Source of the DNA: an uncultured Candidatus Berkelbacteria bacterium
GTDB taxonomy: Bacteria; Patescibacteriota; UBA1384; UBA12157; JAENIV01
Assembly (NCBI GenBank): GCA_963698075.1
Contig: OY969116.1
Coordinates: 798,131 to 862,130, forward strand
Direction of reading: 5' to 3'
DNA: 64,000 bases
Part shown: in pieces, positions 14,059-55,812 of the stretch
Numbering within the stretch: position 1 is the stretch's first letter
How the letters are laid out: every line of letters starts with the position of its first letter
The notes under the pieces: model-generated
What the model saw: the letters and a program-made list of their open reading frames with translations, nothing else
Told to the model about the DNA's origin: nothing
The model's database searches: none
Program-made: the position numbers and the translations under genes

Positions 14059-14258
14059 GAGGGCTCAAGCAGTACCTTGAACAACCGAATAGAGCTCCCA
14101 AATTCCTTGGCGAAGGGAGGGATGCGTATCGAAGAGGTCACCGTCTTCTCCGAGAGGAGACCGGCGACATCATTAGTTCTAGTGTGTCAAAGGCCTTCTC
14201 CACACAGCAAACCCCGCAAGCCCAGGGGCGATGGGCTAGTCACAGTCAGGAGAGGCAG

Positions 14259-14633
14259 ATGGAAGAAGGAGCCGATTCAGCCGAAGTGAGGCCAGTGTGC
14301 CTCATGGTTGTCTCCGACAATGGCAATGGCCAGAAGCGCGTAGGCAAGGAAGCCGAGCCAACGTGCTTCAGTCGCGTCGTCTTTCCCCTGGGGGTCAAAA
14401 TGCAGTTTTCGCCAAGCGCGATCCCCCAACCGATCCGTTGCTGGACTGGTTTGGATCCAAGCGATCCATGCCAGAAAGGAGATCTCGTCGTTCCCCCTGA
14501 AGGCAGCGGAGTCCTCGCTTTCTCAAGTGAGGTCTCCGTGAACGTCGGTGATGAGTTCTGGCGCCAGGGCATCAGGCTGATGCCAGCCGATATCCAGGCC
14601 GCCAAGGCCTCAGGGGTGCAGTTCATCGAGTGA
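14259..14633 (+). CDS. hypothetical protein in GC-rich island C (weak call)
   Basis: ATG with AGGAGAGG RBS; stop is immediately followed by a strong terminator. Overlapping ORFs exist on both strands of this GC-rich block, so coding status is uncertain. Confidence 0.2.
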   Translation: MEEGADSAEVRPVCLMVVSDNGNGQKRVGKEAEPTCFSRVVFPLGVKMQFSPSAIPQPIRCWTGLDPSDPCQKGDLVVPPEGSGVLAFSSEVSVNVGDEFWRQGIRLMPADIQAAKASGVQFIE

Positions 14634-24861: not shown

Positions 24862-24971
24862 TTTATCCAAAATTTTTAATTGAACTCAGTAATTATCAAA
24901 GCTTTTTTGATTGTTTTTTTAAGCTTTATCTGTTAGAATAATCTTAACTCGAAGTGGGGAGGACGTTGAGA

Positions 24972-25778
24972 ATGGCACGTGCGGCCTGGATTGTCATTAT
25001 CGCTGTCGTCGTCTGCACTTTCATAGGCGTACAAGTGTACGACAACCAGATGGTTCCAACGATGAAGAAGATCCAGGTTGTCTGTGATGATCCCAAACAC
25101 CAAGGCAACCGAGTCGTCTTGACTGATGAGAAACCGACTATCGCTAAAAGAAAGGATGCTCGTCACGAGATTGTCGAAGTCCAGCGTACCTCTGCCTGTC
25201 TGCAATGCCAGAAGCGCAAAGAGCAAGAATTCCAGATTGCCAGATCAAGAGCCGAGACAGATGATCTGATAAGGCATCTTGATTATCATTTCGCGTTCGA
25301 GCTAGCTTTCGCCACTGAATATGTTCGAGAGAAGTCATTGCCACCAGGCGGCGGGATCACCTTCCACGTTGATGTTAAGAATAAAGGATCTAGCGTCATC
25401 GAAGGGTTGCGGTTTATTGTTCAGCCCGTAAGCTATCTCTATTTGACGCCATTCCGGGAGGTTTCGGTATTCGACCGGGCATTACACGATGTTCACGTTG
25501 GCTACGACAAGAAGGACGCCGCGCTCTTGAAGAATCTGACGACCACTGGCTTGGCCGTCTGCGACTACCAAGGACGCAGCAAGCTTTTCCCTCAGGGTAA
25601 TCCCTATTATCCGGAAAACGTGGGTTATTGTGACACGGCGTTTATGTTGCGCGGTCGATTGGCGTTGAGTCCTAAACTCCAACCTGGTCAGGATGTCCAG
25701 TTCCAGGGATACCTCATCTACAAGAATAAGAAGATTCCCCTCGGTACCCTGACGGTCCACGTTATGTATCCTGGCTAA
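24972..25778 (+). CDS. membrane-anchored hypothetical protein (GC-rich island E)
   Basis: GGGAGGA RBS; N-terminal TM helix (AAWIVIIAVVVCTFIGV); no recognisable domain; ~57% GC. Confidence 0.4.
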   Translation: MARAAWIVIIAVVVCTFIGVQVYDNQMVPTMKKIQVVCDDPKHQGNRVVLTDEKPTIAKRKDARHEIVEVQRTSACLQCQKRKEQEFQIARSRAETDDLIRHLDYHFAFELAFATEYVREKSLPPGGGITFHVDVKNKGSSVIEGLRFIVQPVSYLYLTPFREVSVFDRALHDVHVGYDKKDAALLKNLTTTGLAVCDYQGRSKLFPQGNPYYPENVGYCDTAFMLRGRLALSPKLQPGQDVQFQGYLIYKNKKIPLGTLTVHVMYPG

Positions 25779-35029: not shown

Positions 35030-35371
35030 CTAGAACTCGAGTTCTGAAAGGTGAAAGTCTTGGACGGTAGAGAAGGCTCCAACCATCCAGGCTCGAAGAT
35101 TAGTGGTAACGAACTCTCTAAGGATGACGCAGATGGCCTCCTCGATCTCATCCTTGTTTGTTTGGGCGTTTGCTTCCTTGGTATCGATGTGGATCTGGGC
35201 GAAGAGACCAGCGCTGTCGGATAAGTGGGATGGAACGATCTCGACGAAAATCGGTTTGACGATGGTGTCGATATTCAGTATCTCAGCAACCTTGCTCTGA
35301 ATATTGTCTCGCAGAGCTTTCTGTTCGTCTGGGCTGATGGTGTCAGGTATGCCGTAAATGTGGATGAGCAT
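35030..35371 (-). CDS. tandem tautomerase-fold-like small protein, paralog A
   Basis: Two beta-alpha-beta halves resembling 4-OT (LIHIYGIP...DEQKALRDNIQSKVAEIL...PIFVEIVP). ~90% identical to 43375..43716. Has its own promoter and terminator. Confidence 0.35.
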   Translation of the reverse strand: MLIHIYGIPDTISPDEQKALRDNIQSKVAEILNIDTIVKPIFVEIVPSHLSDSAGLFAQIHIDTKEANAQTNKDEIEEAICVILREFVTTNLRAWMVGAFSTVQDFHLSELEF

Positions 35372-38785: not shown

Positions 38786-38869
38786 AATTATTTATTTGAT
38801 CTACAAACTATTGATTTTTAAATCATATTCTTTTAGAATTAGACTAACCAGTTGAACCAGGAGACAGAC

Positions 38870-39139
38870 ATGGAGCGATTCGTCAAGATTGTTATTGAAG
38901 GCGAAACCACTGATAACCTGTGGTCCCAGATCGACTCAATCGATGGTATCCAGATGGTTGAGCGCATCCGTACTTCCTCCCAGGCAGTAGCGTTTTACCG
39001 TATCGAGGCCAGCAAGTTTGACTGTGCCTCAGAGAGATTGAGGACCTATGGGGAGATTTCTGAACTGGACGCCGACGAGCAGAAAAGGTTGTTGGTAAGA
39101 TACAATACCATGCAGCGAATTGCAGCTGCAAGGCTATAG
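38870..39139 (+). CDS. hypothetical protein (GC-richer mini-island)
   Basis: Own TTGATT-17-TAGAAT promoter, CAGGAGA RBS and a terminator hairpin at ~39165-39195. Confidence 0.3.
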   Translation: MERFVKIVIEGETTDNLWSQIDSIDGIQMVERIRTSSQAVAFYRIEASKFDCASERLRTYGEISELDADEQKRLLVRYNTMQRIAAARL

Positions 39140-39268: not shown

Positions 39269-40975
39269 ATGGAATCTCAAGAAAAATTGGAAATTTTAAG
39301 GCATTCCTGCGCTCATTTATTGGCGGCGGCCATTCACGAAATTTATTCTGGCGCCAAATTTGCGATTGGGCCTTCAATCGAAAATGGTTTTTATTATGAT
39401 TTCGGTTTGCCAAAAACTTTAACCCCTGAAGATCTAAAAAAAATCGAAGCCAAAATGCATGAGCTTTCCAAAAAGGACTTGCCGTTTGAAAAATCGGAAT
39501 TGTCTAAAAAAGAGGCGATTGATAAAGAGAAAAAAGCCAAGCAAAACTACAAAGTTGAACTCATAAACGATATTCCCGATGAAAAAGTCATCTACTTTAC
39601 GACGGGTGATTTTGTTGATCTCTGTCGTGGTCCGCATGTAAAGTCCACTGGCGAGATTGGACATTTCAAGCTTTTAAATATTGCCGGTGCCTATTGGCGG
39701 GGCGATGAGAGAAACCCGATGCTTCAAAGAATCTACGGTACCTGTTGGGAAAGCGAAAAAGATTTAGAAAAGTACCTTGAAATGCTTGAACAGGCAAAGC
39801 TCCGTGACCACCGAAAGATCGGCCAGGATTTGGATTTGTTCTCTTTTCATCCCGAAGCCCCGGGGATGGTTTTCTGGCATCCCAAAGGCAAAGTGATTTT
39901 TGATTTATTGGTAGATTTTTCCCGCGAGAAATCAAAAAAATTTGGCTACCAAGAAGTTTTGACGCCCAACGTTTTAAACATCAATATTTGGAAGGTTTCT
40001 GGTCATTGGGATCATTACAAAGATGCGATGTACTTTGCCGGCGGCAATGAAGCAAAGGAGCAAAATTTTGGAATTCGTCCCATGGGTTGTCCTGGCTCGA
40101 TTTTAATTTACAAAACCAAAACTCATTCTTATAAAGATCTGCCGATTCGTTACTCTGAGTTTGATACTTTGATGCGTAAAGAACTTTCGGGGACTTTACA
40201 CGGATTGTTTAGGGTCCAACAGTTAACACAAGACGATGCTCATTTGTTTTTACGCGAGGATCAGATTCTTGAAGAGATCACTTCAGTTTTAAAACTGGTA
40301 GATGAAACTTATAAAGAATTAGGGCTTCGATACACGATTAATCTTTCCACCCGACCATCTGATTTTATGGGCAAAATCGAAACCTGGGAAAAAGCCGAAA
40401 AAGACTTAAAAGAGGCACTTAAGAAAAGTGGTTTTGAGTATAAAATCAAAGAGGGCGACGGAGCATTCTACGGTCCGAAAATTGATATTGATGTTCTGGA
40501 TGCTTTAGATCGAGCCTGGCAGTGTTCGACGATTCAGCTTGATTTTCAAATGCCGGAGAAATTTGATTTAGACTTTGTCGACGGAAAGAGGAAAAAGGTT
40601 CGGCCGGTGATGATTCATCGCGTGATTTTGGGTTCAATTGAAAGATTCACTGGCATTCTGCTTGAGCATTTTGGCGGCGCTTTACCGACTTGGCTTTCGC
40701 CGACCCAGGCCATTGTCCTGCCGGTTTCCGATAAGCACATTGAATATGCGAAAAAAGTAGCCGAAGACTTTAAGGGTTTCCGGGTAGCAGTTGACGAACG
40801 GAACGAATCGCTCGGTAAAAAAATCCGCGATGCCGAACTTCAAAAAGTCCCATTTATAATTGTGGTTGGCGATAAAGAGATAAGCGACAAAAATATCACC
40901 ATTAGAACGCGCGGCTCAAGGGACCTCAAAGTCTCTAATATCGAGAAATTAATTAAGCTCATAGGCGAAAAATAA
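39269..40975 (+). CDS. thrS: threonyl-tRNA synthetase (short form)
   Basis: Class II aaRS with ThrRS editing/catalytic motifs (HSCAHLLAAAI..., FRVQQLTQDDAH). Confidence 0.95.
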   Translation: MESQEKLEILRHSCAHLLAAAIHEIYSGAKFAIGPSIENGFYYDFGLPKTLTPEDLKKIEAKMHELSKKDLPFEKSELSKKEAIDKEKKAKQNYKVELINDIPDEKVIYFTTGDFVDLCRGPHVKSTGEIGHFKLLNIAGAYWRGDERNPMLQRIYGTCWESEKDLEKYLEMLEQAKLRDHRKIGQDLDLFSFHPEAPGMVFWHPKGKVIFDLLVDFSREKSKKFGYQEVLTPNVLNINIWKVSGHWDHYKDAMYFAGGNEAKEQNFGIRPMGCPGSILIYKTKTHSYKDLPIRYSEFDTLMRKELSGTLHGLFRVQQLTQDDAHLFLREDQILEEITSVLKLVDETYKELGLRYTINLSTRPSDFMGKIETWEKAEKDLKEALKKSGFEYKIKEGDGAFYGPKIDIDVLDALDRAWQCSTIQLDFQMPEKFDLDFVDGKRKKVRPVMIHRVILGSIERFTGILLEHFGGALPTWLSPTQAIVLPVSDKHIEYAKKVAEDFKGFRVAVDERNESLGKKIRDAELQKVPFIIVVGDKEISDKNITIRTRGSRDLKVSNIEKLIKLIGEK

Positions 40976-40981
40976 AAAACA

Positions 40982-41908
40982 TTGAAAATACTTAAGAATC
41001 TTTACGGTAAAGAAAAAAACGATGAGTATTTCAAGTTGCTTTTATCGGCCGGGGAAGGGTTTTTAGTAGAAACGTTGATTGGTAAATGTGTCGTTTCAAA
41101 AAAAGGACTTTTTCCTAAACTAAATCTCCCAGATAGTTCTTTAAGAAAAACACACGTGTTCTGTTGTGTTTCTACTCAAATTGGCTGCGTCAACACTTGT
41201 CGTTTTTGCAATAATCGAAAAAAGCGCTTCGTAAGAAATTTAAGTCTGTCAGAAATAAAACAAGAGGTAGATGAAGCTCAAAAAATCTCCCGAAAATTCT
41301 TTGGTCAGAGACTGGAGGAAATTCAATTCGGGGGGATTGGTGAGCCGCTTCTGAATTTGGAAAATGTTATCCGGACAATCGAAATCTTTCACAAGGAAGA
41401 CCAAAATGTCTTTTTTGGGTTTCCGACAACTGGCTTACCGCTAAAAAATTTTCAAAAATTGATTAGAAAATTTTCTGACAAACTCTTGCCAATTTACTTA
41501 CAGATCTCTTTGCACGCCTCAAATGATATTCTTAGGAAAAAAATAATGGGTGTGGGAAACATCCGTCAGATTATACAACTGGCCCAAGAATATTCGGAAA
41601 AGGTTAAATCTCCTGTTATTATTAACTACTTAATGATTCGACAAGTTAATGATCAAATCTGCTTTGCGGATGAGCTCATCCGTTTGTTAGACCAACATTC
41701 GTTAACAAATAAGGTGGTTGTCAAACTATCAATACCAAATGATACAAACACGAAATTTAGCTGTCCGTCGGATGAAAAAAGAATAGACGAATTTAAAGAA
41801 AGACTCGTATCGGCTGGAATTGATGTGGCTGTCTTCGTTAGCGGGGGGAAATCTGTGAAAGCCGGGTGCGGTCAACTTACGGTTTCCCATCAAAAAATCC
41901 AAAAATAA
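40982..41908 (+). CDS. RlmN/Cfr-family radical SAM RNA methyltransferase-like protein
   Basis: CVSTQIGCVNTCRFC cluster motif, GIGEPLLN, and C-terminal GGKSVKAGCGQL, which matches the RlmN second catalytic Cys. Confidence 0.7.
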   Translation: MKILKNLYGKEKNDEYFKLLLSAGEGFLVETLIGKCVVSKKGLFPKLNLPDSSLRKTHVFCCVSTQIGCVNTCRFCNNRKKRFVRNLSLSEIKQEVDEAQKISRKFFGQRLEEIQFGGIGEPLLNLENVIRTIEIFHKEDQNVFFGFPTTGLPLKNFQKLIRKFSDKLLPIYLQISLHASNDILRKKIMGVGNIRQIIQLAQEYSEKVKSPVIINYLMIRQVNDQICFADELIRLLDQHSLTNKVVVKLSIPNDTNTKFSCPSDEKRIDEFKERLVSAGIDVAVFVSGGKSVKAGCGQLTVSHQKIQK

Positions 41909-42010
41909 CAGCAAAAATTGTTTTTTTGTTCTAATTGTGTTTTAATGGATGTGCGAAACGTGTGCAGTGTCGTTCTGCCATGTTTTGTAGAACATTGAAA
42001 GGAGAAGGGC

Positions 42011-42067
42011 ATGAAGAGGTACGTACGCCCGACCATCAGGCGGATCGCCCGCATCACGACCACCTAG
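42011..42067 (+). CDS. candidate RiPP precursor peptide (18 aa, MKRYVRPTIRRIARITTT)
   Basis: AAAGGAGAAGGG RBS then ATG, located 5' of a PqqD-like RRE and an rSAM-SPASM gene; highly cationic, no Cys. Confidence 0.35.
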   Translation: MKRYVRPTIRRIARITTT

Positions 42068-42144
42068 GGGCGATTCGCCGGAAGCCGCACAAGAGGAGGA
42101 GGTTTACACAACTCCTCCTCTATTCGTAGTAAAGGAGAAAGGAA

Positions 42145-42390
42145 GTGTTGAAAACCGCCGAAGGAGTCAGATTCAGTCCCACGGAACCTCTGGTCTACCA
42201 CGATCAGGATTTGTTTGAGGCTAACGAAGTCACCTTGCGGATTCTCGATCTCTGTCAGCAGCCGCAGGACCAGGAGGATCTAGTCGCCCGGCTCGGTTGC
42301 GAATATCAGGTCGCCGAGAACGAATTGGCAGATGATGTTTCCGCTATCGTCTCCGACCTGGTTCAATGCGGCATTCTGGTGGAAGTGTGA
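42145..42390 (+). CDS. PqqD-family RiPP recognition element protein
   Basis: 81 aa with the PqqD pattern (EANEVTLRILDLC...QEDLVARL...DVSAIVSDLVQCGIL); GTG start with AAAGGAGAAAGG RBS. Confidence 0.65.
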   Translation: MLKTAEGVRFSPTEPLVYHDQDLFEANEVTLRILDLCQQPQDQEDLVARLGCEYQVAENELADDVSAIVSDLVQCGILVEV

Positions 42391-43292
42391 TGGCCAGCGT
42401 CTATCCCGTCACCGTCATGTGGAACTTCGGCTATCAGTGCAATATGAATTGCATCCACTGCTACTCAAGACAAGACGCCAGGGCAAACATCGAACACGAA
42501 ATGACACTGGTGCAGGCCGAGCACATTGCTGCCGAGATAATCGCCGCCAAAGCCGTCCATACCCATTTCGGAGGGGGTGAGTCCTTGATGAGACCAGACT
42601 TTGGTCCGATCGCTTCCTCACTGACGAGCACCGGCATTAACGTGAGTCTAAGTTCCAATGGGGCGTTTATCGATGAAAGCACAGCGAATCTCCTTCGAGT
42701 TATACCTCTCGATTTTGTTTCCTTGAGTTTTCACGGTATCAAAGCCGCAACGCACGACGCATTCACCCGTCATCCGGGTTCTTTCGACGGTTTGCTACGA
42801 GCGGCTACCATTCTCAAGGCGGCCGGCGTGAGGACGAAGATCGTTTTCTCGCTCCACGCTCGTAGCAGAGATGAGGCCCCCGGGGTCTTTGATCTGGCGC
42901 GAGAGTGCGGTGTTACCTTCGTGCAGTTTGCCTATGTCAAAGCCGTGGGAAACGCGGCCGAAAACCTCACAAGTTTGCAGTTGAGTCCTTCAGAATGGGT
43001 AGCTTTGTATTCGGCAATCCGCACCCAGGCCGAATCTTACCCTGATCTGAATATTCACTTTGGTCTAGACAACAATCCCATAATCGCAGGCTATGTGGGG
43101 CAAACCATTCTCCCATGTCCGTGCGGAAGATATTCGATCGCAATCAAGCCCAATGGGGATGTCTCCCCGTGCAATGTCGTTACTACCGTCGTGGGAAACG
43201 TCTATCGCCAATCCCTGCTCGATATTTGGCAAGAGGCACCGGAGCTTATCAAAATCCGCTCCGGGACGGCAAATCCCTGCGCCTCCTTTTAA
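42390..43292 (+). CDS. radical SAM enzyme with C-terminal SPASM/twitch domain (PqqE-like peptide maturase)
   Basis: CNMNCIHC cluster motif near the N-terminus and a C-terminal CPCG...SPC auxiliary-cluster Cys motif; 1-nt overlap with the PqqD-like gene. Confidence 0.8.
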   Translation: MASVYPVTVMWNFGYQCNMNCIHCYSRQDARANIEHEMTLVQAEHIAAEIIAAKAVHTHFGGGESLMRPDFGPIASSLTSTGINVSLSSNGAFIDESTANLLRVIPLDFVSLSFHGIKAATHDAFTRHPGSFDGLLRAATILKAAGVRTKIVFSLHARSRDEAPGVFDLARECGVTFVQFAYVKAVGNAAENLTSLQLSPSEWVALYSAIRTQAESYPDLNIHFGLDNNPIIAGYVGQTILPCPCGRYSIAIKPNGDVSPCNVVTTVVGNVYRQSLLDIWQEAPELIKIRSGTANPCASF

Positions 43293-43374
43293 CGAATCCG
43301 ATCCAGTAGAGGGAGTTCATACTCCCTTTTCGTTTATATAAAGAAGAATCCGTCCCGGAAGGGGACGGATGATG

Positions 43375-43716
43375 TTAGAACTCGAGCTCCGAAAGGTGGA
43401 ATTCTTGGACGGTGGAGAAGGCTCCAACCATCCAAACTCGAAGATTAGTGGTTGCGAATTCTCTTAGGATGACGCAGATTGCCTCTTCGATCTCGTCCTT
43501 GTTTGCTTGGGCGTTTGCCTCCCTGGTGTCGATATGAATCTGAGCGAAGAGGCCAGCGCTGTCGGAGAAGTGGGATGGGACGATCTCGACGAAAATCGGC
43601 TTGATCATCTCGGTAATGTTCAGAATCTCAGCGACTTTGCTCTGAATCTTATCTCGCAGAGCTTGCCGTTCATCTGGGCTGATGGTGTCAGGTATACCGT
43701 AAATGAGGATCAGCAT
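43375..43716 (-). CDS. tandem tautomerase-fold-like small protein, paralog B
   Basis: ~90% aa identity to 35030..35371, with matching promoter and terminator flanks. Confidence 0.35.
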   Translation of the reverse strand: MLILIYGIPDTISPDERQALRDKIQSKVAEILNITEMIKPIFVEIVPSHFSDSAGLFAQIHIDTREANAQANKDEIEEAICVILREFATTNLRVWMVGAFSTVQEFHLSELEF

Positions 43717-43817
43717 GCGATTCCTCCGCGCGGCGTTGTTAGAACTATTATGACACCTTTTAAATAAATGTCAACTGTTGACAAAATTTCTAGTTATTAT
43801 ACAATTAAAATACCAAA

Positions 43818-47551: not shown

Positions 47552-48292
47552 CTAATAGTTCTCAAAGGGATTTGATCTCCCAAATCCCGATTCAGCTGGT
47601 AAGTTTATGGGCGCGCCATAAGTTTTCAGATTAAGAAATTTTCTGATGGTATCATCAGAAACTCGAATATTATCTAAAGTATTGGCAATAGAGACATTAC
47701 TTTTATAGAAAGCTACCCCGCTGATTTGGGCAATAAAGACTGTCTGTTTCTCTTTTTGAGTTATTTGTAGGCTGAGGTTTTTTAGACTAATGAGACGGCT
47801 ACTAGAATCAATGGCTCTAAGAAAATTCATAAAATCGGAAAATCCACCGGATAATTTCATTGTGAATTCTACTTCTTTTGCACCACTTGAAGGAGAGGTA
47901 CTAGTGCTTGGTTTGGGAGTGGGAGAAGCTTTTCCCGTTGTTGTCTCTTCAGAGGTCTGACTACTTGTTTTCGTTTTCTCCATCGAAGTTTCTTCAACTT
48001 TTAGATTATTAGCGCTGGCCATGGCGGTGAGTTCAATCACTAGCTCACCCGATTCCTGCTCGGTGGGAATGTAGTTTAAGGCGATCTGACCCACATTGGA
48101 AAGGTTTGGATTTTTCTTCAATTCTTCAAGAATTTTTTTCTTTTCTTCGACTTGGTTGAGGTCTCCTTTGGCCCGCTCCAAATCTTTCCAGGCTGACCAG
48201 ATAGATGTTACTACCGGTTTAATCGCCAAAAAACTAATCGCTCCGACGAGAATGATGGTGATACCTAAAATTGTAATTGGTCTTGTTTTCAT
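47552..48292 (-). CDS. pilO: type IV pilus assembly protein PilO-like
   Basis: N-terminal TM helix, coiled-coil, position after pilN in a pilMNO arrangement. Confidence 0.55.
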   Translation of the reverse strand: MKTRPITILGITIILVGAISFLAIKPVVTSIWSAWKDLERAKGDLNQVEEKKKILEELKKNPNLSNVGQIALNYIPTEQESGELVIELTAMASANNLKVEETSMEKTKTSSQTSEETTTGKASPTPKPSTSTSPSSGAKEVEFTMKLSGGFSDFMNFLRAIDSSSRLISLKNLSLQITQKEKQTVFIAQISGVAFYKSNVSIANTLDNIRVSDDTIRKFLNLKTYGAPINLPAESGFGRSNPFENY

Positions 48293-48855
48293 TGCGACAA
48301 ATTTACTTTTTCTAAATCAAACTCCAAAGTAAATCTCAATTTTTGGGCCTGGGCCGTTTGATCGGTTTGAAGACTAGAGCTTTTAAAATTAACATTCTTA
48401 AAGACAGGTGAATTTTCGAGCTTTTCCTTGAATTTAATAATTTCTCTTTCTGTCGTGGTATTACCCTGCAGAATAAAATTAGGAGACTTGCTCGTGTTGG
48501 CAGTTAAATTATCAAATTGAACATCAGAAGGGGCGCTGTTGGCCAATTCTTGCATCACTTGAGACCAAATAACACGAGTTTTATTAATAGTGTCTGTTGT
48601 ATTGGCGCGATCGTTGATGAGCAGTGCCAGATCTTCAAGATCCTTTGACTCTTCTAACTGACCAGTATTTTTTTCAACATTGCTTTTGGCGGCTGAAAGC
48701 CTATCTTTAATCGTGGCTTCAAGCGACCGGCCGATAATGGCGATGACAACAATCACAAGGGTAATCACAATACAAATCCCAATCAAGGAAGCATTGCGTT
48801 TGGCTTCAATTCGTCGAAGCTTAAGCTCGGGAGACAAAAGATTAATGTTAATCAT
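48289..48855 (-). CDS. pilN: type IV pilus assembly protein PilN-like
   Basis: MININLLSPE... with TM helix, typical PilN N-terminus; overlaps pilM and pilO. Confidence 0.6.
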   Translation of the reverse strand: MININLLSPELKLRRIEAKRNASLIGICIVITLVIVVIAIIGRSLEATIKDRLSAAKSNVEKNTGQLEESKDLEDLALLINDRANTTDTINKTRVIWSQVMQELANSAPSDVQFDNLTANTSKSPNFILQGNTTTEREIIKFKEKLENSPVFKNVNFKSSSLQTDQTAQAQKLRFTLEFDLEKVNLSQ

Positions 48856-48861
48856 GATTTC

Positions 48862-49788
48862 TCATATTTTCTTCATCGCCAATCCAATGACACTTGCGAA
48901 TTTTGGATTGTAAGTTTTTGTCTTAATTAATGGCCAACCAATTTCTGTCTTAATTTTTGTTGATTGTTCTATTGCCGAAGTAATGTTGGGAGTATTGGCA
49001 CCGCCTCCCGCTAAAATAATTTTTCTAAAGATTGTCGCTTGCCCTATACGATTTTGATAATATTTAATCAAATGAATAATTTCCGAGACTAAATTATTAA
49101 TGATGGGTTGAAAATCTTTGGCCAAATCATCGCCGCCACTCGATATCGTTGAAGTCAATTTAATGGTTGCTTGGTCAAAGCAGATGATGCTCGAGGTTTT
49201 GGCGCCAATATCTAAAATTAAATAGGGTCCAGCATCATTTTTACCAATCAAAGCCCTGACCACCGAAACCGGTTTGGTCTCCAGGCTCGAAAGTTCCAAT
49301 CCCGCCTGCTTCATCACCTCCGCAAATGAGTCGACAATTTTTTTGGGGGCGGCGACGACCAAGACATCAATGAGATTTTTACCTGGTAATTGACCGACAA
49401 TTTGCCAATCCATATACATTTCATTAGCGGGAATAGGGAAGAATTCGCCAGCCTGATAGGGAATATTTTTGTTGATTTCTTCAATTTTCATTGCCGGTAA
49501 ATCGATTGATTTAGTAAAAACCAATGATTCGGGTAGGGCCGCTGAGACTACTTTCGAAGAAATTGGGTGAGGCTTGGCTGATTTCATTGCCTGCCAAATT
49601 GCCTCGGTTGCTTTCTTTTGATCTTTGATGCCATCCTTACCTAAAGTTTTAGACTCAATTTTAACCTCTGCCACGCCCAAAAGTTTAGCGCCGGCACCCT
49701 CGCCTTTAAGCTGCATTACTTTTAAGCTTGAATAACCAATATCTAGACCGAAAATGGGCTTTTTTAATCCTAGAATTCCCTCGTACAA
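48862..49788 (-). CDS. pilM: type IV pilus assembly protein PilM (actin-like ATPase)
   Basis: GLDIGYSSLKV... actin/FtsA-like fold; 308 aa. Confidence 0.85.
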   Translation of the reverse strand: MYEGILGLKKPIFGLDIGYSSLKVMQLKGEGAGAKLLGVAEVKIESKTLGKDGIKDQKKATEAIWQAMKSAKPHPISSKVVSAALPESLVFTKSIDLPAMKIEEINKNIPYQAGEFFPIPANEMYMDWQIVGQLPGKNLIDVLVVAAPKKIVDSFAEVMKQAGLELSSLETKPVSVVRALIGKNDAGPYLILDIGAKTSSIICFDQATIKLTSTISSGGDDLAKDFQPIINNLVSEIIHLIKYYQNRIGQATIFRKIILAGGGANTPNITSAIEQSTKIKTEIGWPLIKTKTYNPKFASVIGLAMKKI

Positions 49789-49794
49789 AAATCC

Positions 49795-49960
49795 CTCCTC
49801 AACTTCGATTATATCATAATCGAAGAAATCCTAAATTCTAAGCACTAAATTCGAAACAATATCTAAATTCCTAAATCAGAATTTTAAAAAACATTTTGAT
49901 TTTTGGATTTGTTATTTGGAATTTGTTTGGGATTTCGGATTTAGGATTTCGGATTTCCCG
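49795..49960. repeat. AT-rich intergenic repeat region related to the 740/20235 family (reverse orientation)
   Basis: aatcctaaattctaa / ggatttcggatttaggatttcggattt motifs. Confidence 0.4.
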
Positions 49961-49969
49961 CGAGGCGGG

Positions 49970-51241
49970 CTAGTATTCTTCTTCCCAATGATTAATTTCG
50001 ATTACTGGCGTTTCCGTAGGATTATCTAAAGCCGTATTAACAATGTCACTGTCGAAATGGATATTGACCGTACGAAAGCCAGAGATCCAGACCCTTCTGG
50101 CGATAATGCCACCGGTCAAATTGAGGATGTAGGGAATGGAAGAATCAATCTCGACTCGATCACCGGCATAAACCAAGCCAGTACCTTGAAAATTACCGGC
50201 AGTGCCAATGACAATATCGCGGCTACTCAAGACTCCTGCCGGACCTCCAGCAGGTACATTAACAAAAAGTTGTCCCAGGGTAATAGTAATGCTACCCGAA
50301 GCAGCAATTATCCCATTCATGGTGATGGTTCTTGCCCAATCAATATCCAAGGGTCCATCAATGAAGACCACTCCAGAAAAAGTATGGCTACCCAATTTGG
50401 GAATTAAATCTTTAAAATCTTTTTGCTTGGCAAAGTATTGATTGCCTTCAGGACTTTCGCCGGGAATATTTTTGGCTATATTTTTATAATATTCGAAATC
50501 AATTTCCGGAATTTTCTTGGTTTCCGCCCCTTCAAGAGGAGCACAACCCGGATTATCACCACATTGAGGCGTTTCCGGATCGCTATCGTCTTCAAACAAA
50601 CAATTACAATTGACAGTTGAATTTTTATTAACTACTTGATCACCGGCTTCAACCGTTTTTTCAACGTTAATAATTGATCCAAATTTAAAATTAATATCGC
50701 GATTGCTCAAGACACCGCCATTATAGATATTAACTGGGGCATACCAAAAATCACTATCAGCGATGGAAGAACCAGCGCCTGAACCAGTGGCATAAATCCC
50801 GCCATCATAGGGATAAGTTCGGTCATTCGCCTGGGCAATACCGACCTTAATTTCTCGCCTGGCGGTCCGTAAAGTTCCGATATGATAAGTCCCAATAGCA
50901 GTGACAATGGCCGAACCCCAAGCATTATTTTGAATCCTGACCTCATAACCACCTTGGGGAATCAGGGCTGTCTCGTGAGAAAAAATGGTCAAACCATCAG
51001 TGGTGGTCATAAATCGCTCTCGAATGTCGGGATCATATTGAACAAGATAAATTGCTTCTTGGACACCAGCTTCGGCCAAAGAAAAAGCCACTGCTGCCCC
51101 TTTATTGTTACGGGCAATGGTTAACTCACTAAATAAAGAACTAGCATAAAAATAAGTGGCAGTCACTAAGACCATCATCAAAATTAAGACCACAATACTG
51201 ACATAACCCTGTTGCCAATTTTGAATTTTTTTACTGTACAT
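49970..51241 (-). CDS. PilX-like pilus assembly/minor pilin protein
   Basis: PilX_N-like hydrophobic N-terminus (QQGYVSIVVLILMMVLV); large secreted domain. Confidence 0.4.
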   Translation of the reverse strand: MYSKKIQNWQQGYVSIVVLILMMVLVTATYFYASSLFSELTIARNNKGAAVAFSLAEAGVQEAIYLVQYDPDIRERFMTTTDGLTIFSHETALIPQGGYEVRIQNNAWGSAIVTAIGTYHIGTLRTARREIKVGIAQANDRTYPYDGGIYATGSGAGSSIADSDFWYAPVNIYNGGVLSNRDINFKFGSIINVEKTVEAGDQVVNKNSTVNCNCLFEDDSDPETPQCGDNPGCAPLEGAETKKIPEIDFEYYKNIAKNIPGESPEGNQYFAKQKDFKDLIPKLGSHTFSGVVFIDGPLDIDWARTITMNGIIAASGSITITLGQLFVNVPAGGPAGVLSSRDIVIGTAGNFQGTGLVYAGDRVEIDSSIPYILNLTGGIIARRVWISGFRTVNIHFDSDIVNTALDNPTETPVIEINHWEEEY

Positions 51242-51902
51242 TTCTTCCTAAAACTTTGGTTTGAAAAGGATAGGTGGTGGTACCATCAGAAATTTCTAAA
51301 TTGATTGTAATTACTTCTTCTCCCCAAAATTGTAAAGTGGTCATCTGTTGGGCTTTAATTTGATCCCTATCAATATATTCAGTTGGTTGCCCCCCGCCGG
51401 GAGCGAGCGTTGACCACAAAACCCAATTGGTGTCGGAAGCGCCACCGAAGGCATAATGGCTTAATATTCGATGAAGATCGGTCCCAACTAGTTTATAAGT
51501 GACATATTGAATTTTCCCCACCGCCTCACCCGAGGGTGAAGGCGAAGGGACCGGCGATGCGACGCCCACCGGCCAAAAATTATGGCCATCTTGAAATTTC
51601 AACTCCGAAGATGGTGTTCCCGAATCTGGATCAGCCGGCAGCACGGTCCAAATCTCGACGGCTTGGCGGATATCTCGCGTCATTCTTTCTAAGGCAATGC
51701 GGCCATTTTGGGTCAATTCCGCACTGACTAAATTTTTCTTGAAAGATTGGTAAGACATTGAATAAATAGCATAACCGGCCATCACAATTATTACCGACAA
51801 AAAAACGACCGCTAAAATTTCAACTAACGTAAATCCTTTTCTTTTTTTCATTTTAATGTTTTGCTTTGATTGAGGCTGTCTTAAAACTTTTATCTTGACC
51901 AT
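51231..51902 (-). CDS. prepilin-type minor pilin (PilW-like)
   Basis: Class III signal GFTLVEILAVVFL. Confidence 0.7.
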   Translation of the reverse strand: MVKIKVLRQPQSKQNIKMKKRKGFTLVEILAVVFLSVIIVMAGYAIYSMSYQSFKKNLVSAELTQNGRIALERMTRDIRQAVEIWTVLPADPDSGTPSSELKFQDGHNFWPVGVASPVPSPSPSGEAVGKIQYVTYKLVGTDLHRILSHYAFGGASDTNWVLWSTLAPGGGQPTEYIDRDQIKAQQMTTLQFWGEEVITINLEISDGTTTYPFQTKVLGRNVQ

Positions 51903-52290
51903 TTTCTTTCCAGGAAATGGTCACCGTGATTTGTTTCATATTACAAGGCAGTTCTTCAGTACAGATTCCTCCCTGATTGACATCGAGCAGATTAGCGTCA
52001 ATTAGCGAGATAACGATTTGTTTATTCCAATTGTGGAAAGGATTATCAAGGTCATCAGAATAGGGTGCGGGCGCGGGAGCGGGCGAACTAACTACCAAAT
52101 TATCATAGGAGATTGCCGATTCTTCATCCAAAAGTCCACTGGCAAGATTAGAGGCAATGGTCTCGTTGCGCGCTGTTTTGATAATCTTGATACTCGAGGC
52201 ATAAAAGCCGGCGATACCCAAAAGCCCAACTTCTAAAATAAAAACGGCCAATAAAACTTCAATTAGGGTGAAAGATGAACGCTTTTTCAT
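51853..52290 (-). CDS. prepilin-type minor pilin (PilV-like)
   Basis: SFTLIEVLLAVFIL prepilin cleavage/methylation motif. Confidence 0.7.
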   Translation of the reverse strand: MKKRSSFTLIEVLLAVFILEVGLLGIAGFYASSIKIIKTARNETIASNLASGLLDEESAISYDNLVVSSPAPAPAPYSDDLDNPFHNWNKQIVISLIDANLLDVNQGGICTEELPCNMKQITVTISWKENGQDKSFKTASIKAKH

Positions 52291-52715
52291 TGCAAATTAA
52301 TCACTCCTGCCGGTAAGATATTAATAGTTTTTGTGGCTCCTCCTAAATCAAGAATAATTGAACCATTATAATCAGGGGCGCCATCAATTCTAAAAGTAAT
52401 CGGATTAGAAATATTTAATTGCAAGGTGATATTCTCCGGCAGGATGATGGTTTCTAATTCATGATCGCCACCATCGACTTTAACTAATTGATAACTCACG
52501 GGTGGTGCGGTTGACTTGAAATAAATCCGATGTGGTTTTTGGGTGGTCACTGCTTCTTCTTGAGCTTGGCGAAGTTTGCTGGTTAATAACCTGGCTGCCC
52601 CCGAAAGTTGCCAACTGGGTAGAAAACTGTTTATTCCCATCACGGTTACTGCCGCCAAAATTCCGATTATCGCCATGACGATTAACATTTCCATTAAAGA
52701 AAAAGCCTTTTTCAT
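52287..52715 (-). CDS. prepilin-type pilin (FimT/GspH-like)
   Basis: AFSLMEMLIVMAIIGILAA prepilin motif. Confidence 0.7.
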   Translation of the reverse strand: MKKAFSLMEMLIVMAIIGILAAVTVMGINSFLPSWQLSGAARLLTSKLRQAQEEAVTTQKPHRIYFKSTAPPVSYQLVKVDGGDHELETIILPENITLQLNISNPITFRIDGAPDYNGSIILDLGGATKTINILPAGVINLQ

Positions 52716-52719
52716 ATCT

Positions 52720-53949
52720 CTAAATAACGTTTACTAAGGAATATATCGGCATAATTACCGAGGCCACCACAAAACCAACACCGGTTCCGATAAGGATTAT
52801 TAAGATAGGCTCAACCAGAGTCGCTAGATTGGAGGTGATGTTTTCCACTTCTTTATCAAAAAAATTGGCCATGGAAAGAAGAACATAATCCAATTTGCCG
52901 CTTTTTTCACCGACGGCAATCAAGTGATAAATCATTGGCGGAAAGATTTTTTGTTTATCGAGCGTTGTGGAAAGTTGGACGCCGTTTTCAATATCTTTGG
53001 AAATTCTTTTGAAGGCATCTTTATAAAGGCGATTATTAATCACGCCTGAAACTGTTTCCACAATTTCCAACATCGGCAGTCCTGAAGCCACTAAAGTTCC
53101 CATCGTTCGAGTGAATCTGGCCATATAAATTTTGCGTGTCAGCGGTCCAATGAGAGGAATTTTAAGTTTAAAATTATCCCAGATCAGGCCGCCCGCAGCT
53201 GTTCTGGCCCAAAAACGAATGCCGAAAATTAAACCTAAAATCACCACCAGGAAAATGTACCAATAATTTATAATGGCATCGCTCGTCCCTAAAACTATTC
53301 GAGTGGTTATAGGCAATTCGGCGCCTAAATCCTGGAAAATGTTTTTAAGTTCCGGCACCACAAAAATTAACATTAAAATTACGATTGCCACTAGAGCGGA
53401 AACGACGACAATCGGATAGGTGACTGCCGCTTTAATTTTGGAAATCAAATCATAATCCTTTTGTAATTGTTCAGCCAAGCGCTCCAAAACCTCATCGAGT
53501 TTGCCGCTTTTCTCTCCCGAGCGGACGATGGAGATATAAAGTTTATTAAATATTTTTGGAAATTTCGCTAAGGTCTCTGAAAGGGCCTTACCTCCCTTGA
53601 CCTCACTGGCGATCTCGGCGATAGTTCGAGAAAAATAATCATTTTCGGTTTGTTCCTCTAATGCCGTAAAAGCCTCAACTAAGGGCAGACCGGCTTTAAT
53701 CATCATTGCCAACTGTTGGGTGAAAATGATTTTATCCTTCAAAGGAACGCGGTTGGAAATAAAAGGAATTTCAATCGATTTTTTGCTAATGCCGGGTAAT
53801 CCTGCTTCTTCTTTTTTCACATCCAAAACAAAAAGTTGGTGATTTTTGAGAATTTTTGCCGCCTCAGCTTCTGAACCTGCTTCAATCATACCTGTTTGAA
53901 TTTGGCCTTCCTTAGTTTTGGCACTTTTTGCATGATAAATATATTTCAT
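52720..53949 (-). CDS. pilC: type IV pilus inner-membrane platform protein PilC (GspF family)
   Basis: Two GspF repeats; 409 aa. Confidence 0.9.
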   Translation of the reverse strand: MKYIYHAKSAKTKEGQIQTGMIEAGSEAEAAKILKNHQLFVLDVKKEEAGLPGISKKSIEIPFISNRVPLKDKIIFTQQLAMMIKAGLPLVEAFTALEEQTENDYFSRTIAEIASEVKGGKALSETLAKFPKIFNKLYISIVRSGEKSGKLDEVLERLAEQLQKDYDLISKIKAAVTYPIVVVSALVAIVILMLIFVVPELKNIFQDLGAELPITTRIVLGTSDAIINYWYIFLVVILGLIFGIRFWARTAAGGLIWDNFKLKIPLIGPLTRKIYMARFTRTMGTLVASGLPMLEIVETVSGVINNRLYKDAFKRISKDIENGVQLSTTLDKQKIFPPMIYHLIAVGEKSGKLDYVLLSMANFFDKEVENITSNLATLVEPILIILIGTGVGFVVASVIMPIYSLVNVI

Positions 53950-53955
53950 AAAATC

Positions 53956-55812
53956 CTAATCTTTGGTGACTCGCCAGATTTCTTCAAGGGTGGTTAAACC
54001 ATCAATCGCTTTGAGAATTCCATCTTGTTTCATTGTCACCATCCCATTTTTAACTGCTTGGGCTCCCAAATTTGTTCCGGAAGCTCTTTTGGCGACCATT
54101 TCCTTTAAATCGTCAGTTAATTGGAAAATCTCAAAAATCCCGATCCTTCCTTTGTAGCCCGATCCGCTACAATTATCGCAGCCTTTGCCGTGGAAAAATT
54201 CGACTTTGGTAGGCTGCTGGGCACCAGGTGGTAGGTTTTTGAGTTCTTTTTCGGCGACGTCTTTTTCCCCGGTCTCAATTTGGAGGGCTTCTTTGCAGTT
54301 TTCGCAGATTCTCCGACAAAGTCTTTGAGCAACCACACAGTTTACGGATGAATTGACGAGGAAGGGTTCGATCTTCATATCGATAAGCCGGGGAATGGCT
54401 CCCGCCGCATCATTGGTGTGTAAAGTTGACAAAACAATATGACCAGTTAAGGCGGCGTGGACCGCCATGTCAGCCGTTTCATAATCACGAATTTCGCCAA
54501 TCATAATGACATTGGGATCCTGACGGACAATCGATCTTAGACCATTGGCAAAAGTAAAACCAATTTGGGGATGAACCTGAGCCTGGTTGATGGTTTGCAT
54601 GCGATATTCCACCGGATCTTCTAAAGTAACAATATTGATACCGACATTTTTAATTTTATCGATGACGGCATATAAAGTGGTAGTTTTGCCTGAGCCGGTC
54701 GGGCCAGTAACCAAAATCATTCCATGAGCCTTGTGAATGTTTTCGTCCAAAACCTTAAAAGCTGTTCCTCTTAAACCAAGTTGTTCCAAAGTTAAAATGC
54801 CAGATGATTTATCTAAAATTCTGGCCACCACCTTTTCGCCATTAACCGTCGGTAAAGTTGAGACTCGAAAATCAACCTCGGCACCATCAACCACAGTTTG
54901 AAAACGACCGTCTTGGGGAAGACGAGTTTCATCAATTTTAAGGTCCGACAAAATTTTTATTCTCGAGACAATCGCCGGTTGTATTTCCTTGGGCAAAGAG
55001 ATTATTTTTCTCAAGATGCCGTCAATCCGGAAGCGAACAGTGACTTGATCTTCCTCGGGTTCAATGTGAATATCAGAAGCTTTTTCGCGAACCGCTCGTT
55101 TATAAAGAGATTGGACGATTTTAGCTGCCGGCGCCGTTTCCTCAATTTCTTCTTTTTTAATTACCGGCCCCTCTTTTTTTGTCGGTTTTAACTCTTCTTC
55201 CTCTTCTTCGGCTGACTCAACAATTTTTTTGAGCTCTCCGGAAAGCGCCGAGTATTGATCCAAGACATGATTGAGATCGGCCTGGGTGCAGATTCGAATA
55301 TCTAATTCTTTGCCTGTTTTCTTTTTGACGAATTCAATCGCCTCACGATCCTCAGGATCAATCATTGCCACCACCAGCCGTCCTTCTTTTTCTTCAATGG
55401 GTACAATTTGATAATGACGAGCAATGTGTTCGGGAAGAAGACTTAAGACTCTTTTGGGAACAGTCGTTTTTGAGAGGTCAATATAGGAGATATTTATCGC
55501 CGGGGTAAAGACGGCTTCGCCGGTCACTTTTTTACCGCCAGCAATTTCCTCTTTAAATTCTGGGCTGGGCCGGAAGCGGGGAATGGTCTTTTCCAAAGAT
55601 AAATAGGTCTTGGAAGGGTTACGGACATCCTTGACGGTTCTTGAAGGATATTTAATCATTACAAAATTACCAAAACCAGGGATATTGACGCTCCGACCGG
55701 CTAAAAGCTCTTTAGAAATAGTATTTTGGATTGAATCTAGGGTTTTTGAAACACTTTCTAAATCAATATTGGAGTTTTTTGCCACCAATTTTTTGAGTTC
55801 TTTCGATGTCAA
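53956..55812 (-). CDS. pilB: type IV pilus assembly ATPase PilB/GspE with N-terminal HU-like domain
   Basis: Walker A GPTGSGKTTT plus Asp/His boxes; GspII N-domain. The first ~90 aa resemble HU/IHF (GFGNFVM...RNPSKT...IPRFRPS). Confidence 0.9.
   Translation of the reverse strand: MTSKELKKLVAKNSNIDLESVSKTLDSIQNTISKELLAGRSVNIPGFGNFVMIKYPSRTVKDVRNPSKTYLSLEKTIPRFRPSPEFKEEIAGGKKVTGEAVFTPAINISYIDLSKTTVPKRVLSLLPEHIARHYQIVPIEEKEGRLVVAMIDPEDREAIEFVKKKTGKELDIRICTQADLNHVLDQYSALSGELKKIVESAEEEEEELKPTKKEGPVIKKEEIEETAPAAKIVQSLYKRAVREKASDIHIEPEEDQVTVRFRIDGILRKIISLPKEIQPAIVSRIKILSDLKIDETRLPQDGRFQTVVDGAEVDFRVSTLPTVNGEKVVARILDKSSGILTLEQLGLRGTAFKVLDENIHKAHGMILVTGPTGSGKTTTLYAVIDKIKNVGINIVTLEDPVEYRMQTINQAQVHPQIGFTFANGLRSIVRQDPNVIMIGEIRDYETADMAVHAALTGHIVLSTLHTNDAAGAIPRLIDMKIEPFLVNSSVNCVVAQRLCRRICENCKEALQIETGEKDVAEKELKNLPPGAQQPTKVEFFHGKGCDNCSGSGYKGRIGIFEIFQLTDDLKEMVAKRASGTNLGAQAVKNGMVTMKQDGILKAIDGLTTLEEIWRVTKD

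Follow-up and report, generated by a model that had tools for sequence, protein, structure and literature searches.

In a 64,000-nucleotide stretch of DNA from an uncultured Candidatus Berkelbacteria bacterium (assembly GCA_963698075.1, contig OY969116.1, positions 798,131 to 862,130 of the forward strand; hereafter the window, numbered from its first nucleotide), we identified a compact cassette of three genes, which encode an 18-residue cationic peptide, a PqqD-family peptide chaperone and a radical S-adenosylmethionine (rSAM) enzyme. On comparative evidence, this conserved trio can be assigned with good confidence to a self-contained peptide-maturation operon of the RiPP type (for peptides made by ribosomes and modified after translation), in which the rSAM enzyme would depend on a discrete RiPP recognition element (RRE). 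Present in the window and in about 16 related uncultured bacteria, the trio very likely represents a modified-peptide pathway not described before, one whose precursor is unusually short, and we read it as an RRE-dependent rSAM pathway of Candidate Phyla Radiation (CPR) bacteria whose precursor would be minimal, Cys-free and of fixed length. A preliminary description of this DNA had proposed a RiPP-type cassette made up of a precursor-like open reading frame (ORF), a discrete PqqD-family RRE and an rSAM enzyme with a SPASM/twitch domain, and that proposal held up. Our analysis establishes the gene content of the cassette, the conservation of the trio, the peptide motif, the conservation of RNA structure, and the family and fold of the enzyme. 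Literature searches on Saccharibacteria, Patescibacteria or CPR together with RiPP or radical SAM found nothing on this cassette family. The features of the cassette are as follows:

41998-42004, plus strand: Shine-Dalgarno (SD) sequence AAAGGAG of the small ORF, read from the sequence, 6 nt 5' of the ATG
42011-42067, plus strand: precursor-like ORF of 18 codons plus stop, MKRYVRPTIRRIARITTT (ATG at 42011, TAG at 42065-42067)
42039-42079, plus strand: hairpin H1, in which codons 10-13, GGCGGATCGCCC (42039-42050), pair with the 12 nt after the stop, GGGCGATTCGCC (42068-42079)
42092-42121, plus strand: hairpin H2, a perfect 10-bp stem with a 10-nt loop, arms AGAGGAGGAG (42092-42101) and CTCCTCCTCT (42112-42121)
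42145-42390, plus strand: PqqD-family peptide chaperone (discrete RRE), 81 aa, GTG start, own SD at 42131-42137
42390-43292, plus strand: rSAM enzyme with a twitch-like (truncated SPASM) C-terminal domain, 300 aa, PF04055 and PF13186
43308-43329, plus strand: terminator-like hairpin closing the cassette, from a terminator scan
43348-43370, minus strand: convergent terminator-like hairpin of a minus-strand 113-aa gene, from the same scan

Conservation of the trio among uncultured relatives

The 18-codon ORF has the properties first ascribed to it: a strong SD, six Lys or Arg residues, a single Tyr and no Cys; it also lacks Glu. It cannot be longer than given here because an in-frame TGA lies at 41996-41998, 5' of the start. 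A word-indexed search of 5.8 billion proteins returned 13 relatives of the rSAM enzyme at 49-68% identity, with the next match at 28%, and a profile of the enzyme run against 1.84 billion representative proteins matched just two clusters above about 260 bits, at 538 and 343 bits; the family is tiny in this library. Scans of metagenome and GTDB contigs added up to about 20 close loci (numbered here with the prefix L), the named ones being metagenome-assembled genomes (MAGs) of Candidatus Saccharibacteria or Patescibacteria. The preliminary description had regarded homologues of the enzyme pair without a conserved upstream small ORF as evidence against a precursor. Among 16 non-redundant relatives (Saccharibacteria/Patescibacteria MAGs or metagenome contigs), 15 have a small ORF in the same register ahead of the PqqD-rSAM pair, with rSAM identity falling as low as 35%. 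This is what generally defines a RiPP locus: the gene of the precursor lies beside, and is conserved along with, that of the enzyme modifying it. The ORF, the position of its stop and the hairpin recur in loci whose rSAM enzymes are 35-68% identical, the PqqD and rSAM genes overlap or abut in all loci, and the trio is the sole constant element—the neighbouring genes differ by clade.

All but one of the close loci that extend far enough 5' of PqqD have a short ORF there; the encoded peptides include MKRYRRPTIRRIARITTD, MRRYRHPFFRRVSRIAFQ, MKHYSSPFFRRISHVVFM, MKRYTRPFIRRVAHLHFT, MKRKYSKPFVRRILRARFL, MRVYKKPKVKRIATNTTA and MLQYQPPEVIEVGSVGFS, and that of a further relative is MNERYHKPYIRLVVRARFN; the peptides matched no NCBIfam model. 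A codon alignment revealed conservation of Tyr (position 0), Pro (+3), a hydrophobic residue (+5), Ile/Val (+8) and Thr/Phe (+13), and of Arg at +7 (Arg11 of the window peptide) in all loci but one. A stop codon follows +14 in every locus, so that the distance from Tyr to stop is constant, while the number of residues 5' of Tyr varies from 3 to 14. Conserved residues are written with varied codons—TAC/TAT, CCG/CCA/CCT and AGG/AGA/CGT/CGA/CGG, the last including switches between AGR and CGN—and the alternative frames contain stops in several loci. Of the 14 homologous loci examined, most have a GGAG-type SD in the corresponding place; L014 and L016 lack it. Moreover, when the window and loci (1.33 Mb) were searched in six frames for Y..P.[IVLFM][RK]R[IV], 26 matches were obtained. 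A close PqqD-rSAM pair follows shortly after 19 of these, 4 fall within distant PqqD-rSAM loci, and the other 3 look like chance. Since the same-register peptide is kept through synonymous codon changes and the motif is concentrated 5' of PqqD-rSAM pairs, the small ORF is no product of chance: selection acts on it at the protein level, and it is inherited together with the enzyme pair.

The PqqD-family protein and the radical SAM enzyme

The PqqD-family assignment, which the preliminary description had offered for checking with hidden Markov models, was confirmed: the protein scores 41.7 bits against PF05402 (cut-off 23.4, E-value 1.4e-10, residues 21-78) and lies below every NCBIfam equivalog cut-off. 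A homologue search with the protein itself returned just the query. With a family profile built from 15 PqqD proteins taken from the loci, the best match in the PDB was TbiB1 (5v1u, E-value 1.7e-11, full length), followed by PqqD (5sxy), LppB (9x8z), TfuB1 (6jx3) and PbaB1; the entries for TbiB1, LppB, TfuB1 and PbaB1 are RRE-leader complexes.

The rSAM gene starts within the stop codon of the PqqD gene (TGATG at 42390), giving the 1-nt overlap noted previously. Its product scores 67.3 bits against PF04055, which places it in the radical SAM superfamily, and passes the Pfam SPASM model PF13186 with 43.3 bits. An alignment of 13 family members contains seven invariant Cys residues: C17-x3-C21-x2-C24, together with C243, C245, C261 and C297. 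The CxxxCxxC motif given in the preliminary description is present and the SPASM model is passed, but the full seven-Cys SPASM motif CX9-15GX4C...CX2CX5CX3C...C, which binds two auxiliary clusters, is not there, its CX2CX5CX3C block being absent from the 13-member alignment. Because this block is missing and only four C-terminal Cys are invariant, the C-terminal domain is twitch-like, with one auxiliary cluster. The best NCBIfam match was GeoRSP_rSAM (164 bits, cut-off 400), and the best sequence match of the enzyme profile in the PDB was PqqE (6c8v, E-value 5e-19, end to end). An AlphaFold2 model of the enzyme reached a predicted local distance difference test (pLDDT) score of 82.6, and its closest structures were SkfB, SuiB, BlsE, anSME and PqqE—all SPASM/twitch enzymes, most of them peptide-modifying; these matches to rSAM structures agree with the TIM-barrel core of the superfamily. 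No RRE is fused to the rSAM enzyme, so it would need a discrete one. Additionally, a defence system was considered and rejected: PADLOC gave generic viperin-model matches to the rSAM core only (residues 9-151) and no defence call.

A leader-like recognition motif and a minimal core

Residues 4-12 of the 18-mer read YxxPxΦ[RK]R[IV], where Φ is hydrophobic, and match the published leader motif [Y/W]xxPx[L/V/I/F/A], which discrete lasso-peptide RREs recognise according to a 2026 study and which is also essential for an unrelated RiPP leader to bind its RRE (PMC13381572). We propose that residues 4-12 form the RRE-recognition motif and residues 13-18 the core, with the conserved Thr/Phe at position 17. 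Because YxxPxΦ is an RRE-bound leader motif, TbiB1 is the best match of the RRE profile and the motif heads longer candidate precursors elsewhere, residues 4-12 are probably homologous to a leader, and the 18-mer would be mostly recognition sequence, with a core of roughly six residues. The preliminary view that the peptide has essentially no leader is probably wrong, the unusual part being its minimal core.

The extended motif YxxPxΦ[KR]R[VI] also opens longer, Cys-rich ORFs beside distant PqqD and rSAM/SPASM pairs, where the ORF lies 3' of the enzyme gene: MNKKTYVKPVVKRVDLKIKNSILAVCNASPT...GCYLP in Anaerolineaceae loci and MKKVRRYEKPIIKRVKKMSFPTD...CSGCHGCR in L071. These candidate precursors of 50-60 aa (L027, 2561-2752; L028, 3279-3440; L086, 6028-6189; L071, 4107-4289) begin M-x-K-K-x-Y-x-K-P-x-Φ-K-R-V, as in the 18-mers, and probably belong to thioether-type RiPPs with a common leader/RRE ancestry. 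Still more distant loci have candidate ORFs of another kind: in L162-L164 (about 2380-2510), a 10-codon ORF, MKKIGKLKTS, with a strong SD is followed by a hairpin and a fused PqqD-rSAM gene, and in L161 (about 80-225), an acidic 18-codon ORF, MSESEDGEFEEVCTVRFL, with a strong SD is followed by a hairpin, an rSAM gene and a GNAT acetyltransferase gene. In both cases the penultimate residue is T or F. A resemblance of the 18-mer to the N-terminus of ribosomal protein L34 was rejected as compositional only, the motif in L34, Y-x-P, differing from the Y-x-x-P found here.

Proposed mechanism and site of chemistry

That the 18-residue peptide is the substrate, how it divides into leader and core, where and how it is modified, what the hairpins do and what the product is for are all inferred. 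The N-terminal two-thirds of the peptide, M-[KR]-[KR]-Y-x-x-P-x-Φ-[RK]-R-[IV], would dock on the PqqD-like RRE, much as [Y/W]xxPxΦ leaders bind lasso B1 proteins and PqqA binds PqqD. Coupled in translation to the enzyme by the TGATG overlap, the RRE would then offer the short C-terminal tail to the rSAM active site, where reductive cleavage of SAM would yield a 5'-deoxyadenosyl radical that takes a hydrogen from the tail, most likely from the penultimate Thr/Phe. The single auxiliary Fe-S cluster of the twitch domain may finish the redox step, which could end in a cross-link, a desaturation or oxidation (Cα-Cβ), or an epimerisation. The product would be a short, strongly cationic modified peptide, with no dedicated protease or exporter gene nearby.

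The site of chemistry is proposed by analogy with pyrroloquinoline quinone (PQQ) biosynthesis, in which the 5'-deoxyadenosyl radical of PqqE abstracts a hydrogen from the Glu of PqqA while the PqqA N-terminus sits on PqqD (PMC10906245). In the PqqA of Klebsiella pneumoniae (23 aa; 100% match to an annotated pqqA gene), the register is W (0), P (+3), F (+5) and E (+13); that of the family peptides is Y (0), P (+3), Φ (+5) and T/F (+13), with the end at +14. As the spacing from the anchor to T/F equals that from Trp to Glu in PqqA, and T/F is the sole conserved position of the tail, the analogy suggests that the penultimate residue (T/F17) is placed at the active site and undergoes the chemistry there. 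With an acceptor Tyr missing at +17, the outcome must differ from that in PQQ; the Cβ radical would be benzylic in the case of Phe and α-hydroxyalkyl in that of Thr. That the C-terminus lies at a constant distance suggests C-terminal chemistry, as in mycofactocin, and the penultimate T/F of the L161 and L162-L164 candidates lends weak support by the same kind of comparison.

Alternatively, Tyr4 itself could be the modified residue, through a Tyr-x-x cyclophane or another Tyr cross-link, with the basic C-terminal part acting as an RRE-bound follower. Tyr4 is invariant and is the only aromatic residue of the window peptide, aromatic C-C cross-links are frequent in Cys-free rSAM RiPPs (streptide, triceptides, ryptides, PQQ), and the near-invariant Arg11 could be its partner. 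However, Tyr4, Pro7 and Φ9 together make up the canonical RRE-binding motif, 3 to 14 residues precede Tyr although its distance to the C-terminus is fixed, and the candidate peptides of distant relatives have no Tyr and keep the penultimate T/F, all of which makes chemistry at Tyr4 unlikely. The Tyr-Val-Arg cyclophane favoured in the preliminary description is accordingly disfavoured in particular: Tyr4 is most simply the RRE anchor, position 6 varies (R/H/S/K/P) and the fixed features are C-terminal.

RNA hairpins and expression of the cassette

Two hairpins lie ahead of the PqqD gene, the first of them overlapping the 3' end of the small ORF. The loop of H1 contains the stop codon of the ORF, and equivalent pairing is predicted in L001-L003, L005, L007, L008 and L013. 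H2, the perfect 10-bp stem that had been described at first, is indeed present; its 5' arm is purine-rich and its 3' arm pyrimidine-rich. Taken alone, the 91-nt stretch around H2 folds slightly better than shuffled sequences (z -1.5), and the region from the ORF to the PqqD start has a minimum free energy (MFE) of -48.7 kcal/mol (z -3.6) in the window. Folds of this region across 14 loci gave z values of -2.4 to -7.0 in 12, and an H2-type stem of 9-18 bp occurs in 10 of the 14, lying between the stop (16-39 nt away) and the PqqD start (18-26 nt away). The arm sequences vary between loci yet remain complementary; RNAalifold, run on a plain MAFFT alignment, returned 8 H2 pairs, all with compensatory double changes. 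A U-rich tail follows H2 in L005, L007 and L013 and is weak in the window. We propose, by analogy, that H2 is an intercistronic attenuator or a transcript-stabilising stem, and the two hairpins would probably yield far more precursor message than enzyme message, like the terminator of mccA-mccB. No known RNA family was found in an Rfam scan of 41700-43800 with E-values up to 1. As a separate observation, the 5' arm of H2 is always SD-like (GAGGAGG, GGAGAG, GGGAGG) and the 3' arm anti-SD-like (CCTCC), in the window and the loci; the arms might compete with the true SDs or interact with 16S rRNA.

The presence of these structures raises the question of whether the small ORF could be a cis-regulatory leader peptide, the translation of which governs the hairpins and read-through into the PqqD-rSAM genes, with the substrate encoded elsewhere. 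Its shortness, the position of H1 over its 3' end and the terminator-like H2 ahead of the enzyme genes would fit, as would the Arg-, Ile- and Thr-rich composition of the window peptide and its location near thrS. On the other hand, the residues conserved are Y, P, RR, I/V and T/F, and no single regulatory amino acid is repeated in a row; other loci have different tails (AFQ, VFM, HFT, RFL) in place of the Thr-rich one; the motif is exactly one that binds an RRE, and an RRE is encoded next to it; the MFE folds contain no alternative antiterminator pairing; and distant loci place motif-headed ORFs 3' of the enzyme. We consider a purely regulatory ORF quite unlikely on these grounds. The roles of precursor and regulator need not be mutually exclusive, since mccA is both.

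The promoter of the cassette is less clear. A sigma-70 scan flagged none upstream, and a candidate picked by eye (TTGTTT at 41918-41923, a 17-nt spacer, then TGnTTTAAT ending at 41946) is weak, so the promoter that the preliminary description attributed to the cassette was not confirmed.

Nature of the product and strength of the assignment

A cassette of this kind might also yield a peptide-derived redox cofactor or small metabolite, as PQQ and mycofactocin systems do, rather than a bioactive peptide. PqqE and MftC are among the closest solved or curated relatives of the enzyme, the precursor is very short with a PqqA-like register, its fixed C-terminal length recalls MftA, and an exporter is absent. 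The residues that would make up such a product are nonetheless unconserved, the last six varying save for T/F17; PqqB/C-like or MftD/E/F-like genes are not conserved nearby, and all PQQ and mycofactocin models score far under their cut-offs. A cofactor is very unlikely to be the product as a result. Finally, the idea that the small ORF arose by chance or is a functionless, degenerate relic, to which its length of just 18 codons, its being overlooked by gene callers and family libraries and its loss in one relative might point, is effectively refuted by the comparative data, given that register, SD, start and stop are kept over 16 lineages with synonymous variation and that stops interrupt the other two frames in several loci.

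Several observations, taken together, weigh against the precursor and maturation assignment. No protease, exporter or immunity gene is conserved beside the trio among the neighbours in the loci. In L020 (133-546), the peptide gene is truncated, with just '...KKDRVIFM' and the stop left in frame with an upstream 109-aa ORF, although the locus retains H2 and PqqD as well as the beginning of the rSAM gene, which the contig end cuts off. The candidate ORFs of L161 and L162 lack YxxP. Because H1 overlaps the RR[IV] codons, part of their conservation could be RNA-driven, and regulatory leader peptides likewise have a short ORF ahead of a terminator-like hairpin. The comparison with PqqA spacing is by analogy and does not amount to a test, and the single-sequence AlphaFold2 model of the PqqD-family protein (pLDDT 46.9) was unusable for fold or peptide docking.

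Genomic context and composition

The cassette is GC-rich in an AT-richer host, as stated previously: its GC content of 0.54 compares with 0.39-0.40 for the flanking DNA and 0.417 for the window as a whole, and its GC content at third codon positions (GC3), about 0.60, exceeds the 0.31-0.42 of neighbouring housekeeping genes. A minority of ORFs in the window is similarly GC3-rich (0.56-0.67; 7299-8795, 14184-14633, 22975-24417, 24954-25778, 38852-39139 and 42011-43716), housekeeping genes lying at 0.31-0.45, which suggests that the class including the cassette is an accessory or foreign compositional class. A mobile element was considered and rejected, as no convincing repeats flank the cassette and no relatives of it were found in IMG/VR viral contigs. 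The thrS synteny with relatives argues for long residence of the cassette, whereas GC3 argues for a foreign origin.

Among the loci, the genes accompanying the trio include a class-I SAM methyltransferase (L001-L004, L081, L014, L016 and L162), a GNAT acetyltransferase (L005-L008, L082 and L161), a PNP_UDP_1-like protein (L009-L012), a Pol-β nucleotidyltransferase (L012, L014 and L016) and a divergent TrmB-like regulator (L005-L007). The PNP_UDP_1-like protein possibly acts in the clearance of 5'-deoxyadenosine or methylthioadenosine. The threonyl-tRNA synthetase gene thrS (39269-40975 in the window) adjoins or lies near the cassette in the window's clade (L001, L002, L081 and L004) and in the distant L162-L164, and serS and a non-discriminating aspS lie 5' of the cassette in L009 and L010. 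This proximity may reflect conserved CPR gene order or could point to a functional link, for example a target/resistance logic. A match between the peptide core and the adjacent synthetase, prompted by the His-rich tail in L009 and HisRS, was rejected because the genes there encode SerRS and a non-discriminating AspRS.

Further observations concern the surroundings of the cassette in the window. Directly 5' of it lies an RlmN/Cfr-like rSAM gene (40982-41908, plus strand) of host-like GC content, the product of which lacks the N-terminal domain (model position 77 is where the match begins) and reaches 164 bits, the cut-off for RlmN being 290. A GC-rich ORF of 95 aa without a Pfam match (38852-39139, plus strand) has homologues in L003 (150-419) and L004 (1783-2052), where it stands just 5' of the methyltransferase-peptide-PqqD-rSAM block; in the window, thrS and the RlmN-like gene lie between this ORF and the cassette. 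On the other side, the cassette is abutted by a gene for a 113-aa protein (43375-43716, minus strand), whose paralogue at 35033-35371 (minus strand) is 88% identical in protein and 87% in DNA. The two genes have a GC3 of about 0.63, without Pfam, NCBIfam or PADLOC matches, and four other relatives among 5.8 billion proteins. At about 43747-43805, we found a near-perfect divergent promoter pair (TTGACA-16-CATAAT and TTGACA-16-TACAAT) with the palindrome TGTCAAC-TG-TTGACA. Farther away, a minus-strand run of genes (47552-55812) encodes three small proteins with prepilin-like N-termini (KGFTLVEILAVVF, SSFTLIEVLLAVF and AFSLMEMLIVMAI), followed by larger genes, and by its appearance looks like a type IV pilus or competence-pilus cluster.

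Implications

If the 18-mer is the substrate, it would set a lower limit for an RRE-dependent radical SAM maturase, with a recognition motif of 9-12 residues and a core of about six. Such a substrate can be synthesized whole, which would make the system a convenient minimal model of RRE-guided radical chemistry. Tentatively, we suggest that the cassette may be the first member of an undescribed rSAM-modified peptide class confined to Saccharibacteria and other CPR bacteria, with the shortest known RRE-dependent precursor (18 residues, about six of them core, and perhaps 10-residue ORFs in distant relatives), a new modification of a penultimate Thr/Phe by a twitch rSAM enzyme, and a PqqA-like register without an acceptor Tyr. 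The trio looks like a conserved pathway resembling secondary metabolism in Saccharibacteria and other CPR bacteria; their genomes are roughly 1 Mb and have very few known biosynthetic clusters, so the pathways that they retain likely matter for the epibiotic lifestyle. Since minimal-genome episymbionts keep the cassette, often beside aminoacyl-tRNA synthetase genes, the product could matter for host-symbiont interaction or could target translation. The cassette also exposes an annotation gap, with both the peptide gene and the family outside current curated models.

Comparison with known systems

PQQ biosynthesis is among the closest parallels. Both systems combine a very short precursor (23 aa for PqqA of Klebsiella), a discrete PqqD-fold chaperone and an rSAM partner, both peptides have an aromatic-x-x-Pro-x-Φ anchor near the N-terminus with the reactive position (proposed, in the present case) 13 residues after the aromatic residue, and PqqE is the best solved sequence match of the rSAM enzyme. 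The cassette nevertheless differs in that the 18-mer has no Glu/Tyr pair, ends one residue past the position of the Glu and lacks the acceptor Tyr, in that the enzyme has one auxiliary cluster (four Cys) instead of the two in PqqE, and in that pqqB/C/F genes are absent from the loci. Scores of 76 against a cut-off of 381 for PqqE (TIGR02109) and of 17 against 46 for PqqD (TIGR03859), the missing Glu-x3-Tyr and the lack of pqqB/C-like conserved neighbours agree with the earlier conclusion that this is not a PQQ locus.

Mycofactocin (MftA/MftB/MftC) likewise has a short precursor, a discrete PqqD-like RRE and an rSAM enzyme, MftC, that works on the extreme C-terminus. MftC (TIGR03962) is among the top NCBIfam matches of the rSAM enzyme at 105 against a cut-off of 265, but the C-terminal Gly-Val-Tyr is missing, the last residue is variable (C-termini include TTT, TTD, AFQ and HFT, among others) and mftD/E/F genes are absent. 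The best-scoring curated rSAM family over the full length is GeoRSP, which is likewise paired with a PqqD-family chaperone; its models TIGR04303 and TIGR04302 gave 164 against 400 and 17.8 against 100. On these scores the cassette belongs to none of the PQQ, mycofactocin and GeoRSP families. We found no literature on GeoRSP, and none of the distant loci inspected was of this type; by eye, they looked AhbD/NirJ-like.

Lasso peptide systems combine a B1 RRE, a B2 protease and a C cyclase with a leader that carries YxxPxL and a Thr at -2. The RRE and leader of the cassette would form a pair of this B1 kind: TbiB1 is the best solved match of our RRE profile (lasso B1, with TbiB1 and TfuB1 as examples), and the [Y/W]xxPx[L/V/I/F/A] motif is present in the peptide, whereas the partner enzyme is an rSAM protein, neither protease nor cyclase occurs among the conserved neighbours or in the flanks of the window, and only 9 residues follow the motif in our peptide; in lasso precursors, the leader continues and is followed by a core of at least 15 residues. 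In the microcin C operon, the tiny precursor gene mccA, with its strong SD, is likewise followed by an intergenic hairpin, and terminator and ribosome binding together lead to an abundant short precursor transcript (PMC4231749). GNAT and methyltransferase genes accompany some members of the cassette family as well, but MccB is an adenylating enzyme, in contrast to the rSAM enzyme of the cassette, and a corresponding role of the hairpin would follow by analogy.

Finally, the cassette can be set beside other rSAM RiPPs. The Cys in the core that characterises sactipeptides and ranthipeptides is lacking from all 16 family peptides, and thioether chemistry is excluded, as the preliminary description had held. 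In Cys-free rSAM RiPPs (streptide, triceptides, ryptides, and epipeptides with YydG), a SPASM/twitch rSAM enzyme likewise works on a ribosomal peptide that contains no Cys; SkfB and SuiB lead the structural matches, and YydG is a weak sequence match. Their enzymes, however, carry fused RREs or act on precursors of 30-60 aa with long leaders and other motifs, and the cassette reaches the cut-off of none of their curated models. In triceptides, the rSAM enzyme cross-links an aromatic-x-x motif in the core; a Y-x-x occurs in the 18-mer, but this Tyr lies within the RRE motif and the third position is variable. Uncharacterised rSAM-RiPP families are common; what makes this cassette experimentally attractive in comparison is its precursor size, its PqqA-like register, its twitch enzyme and its host group, and its chemistry could be new.

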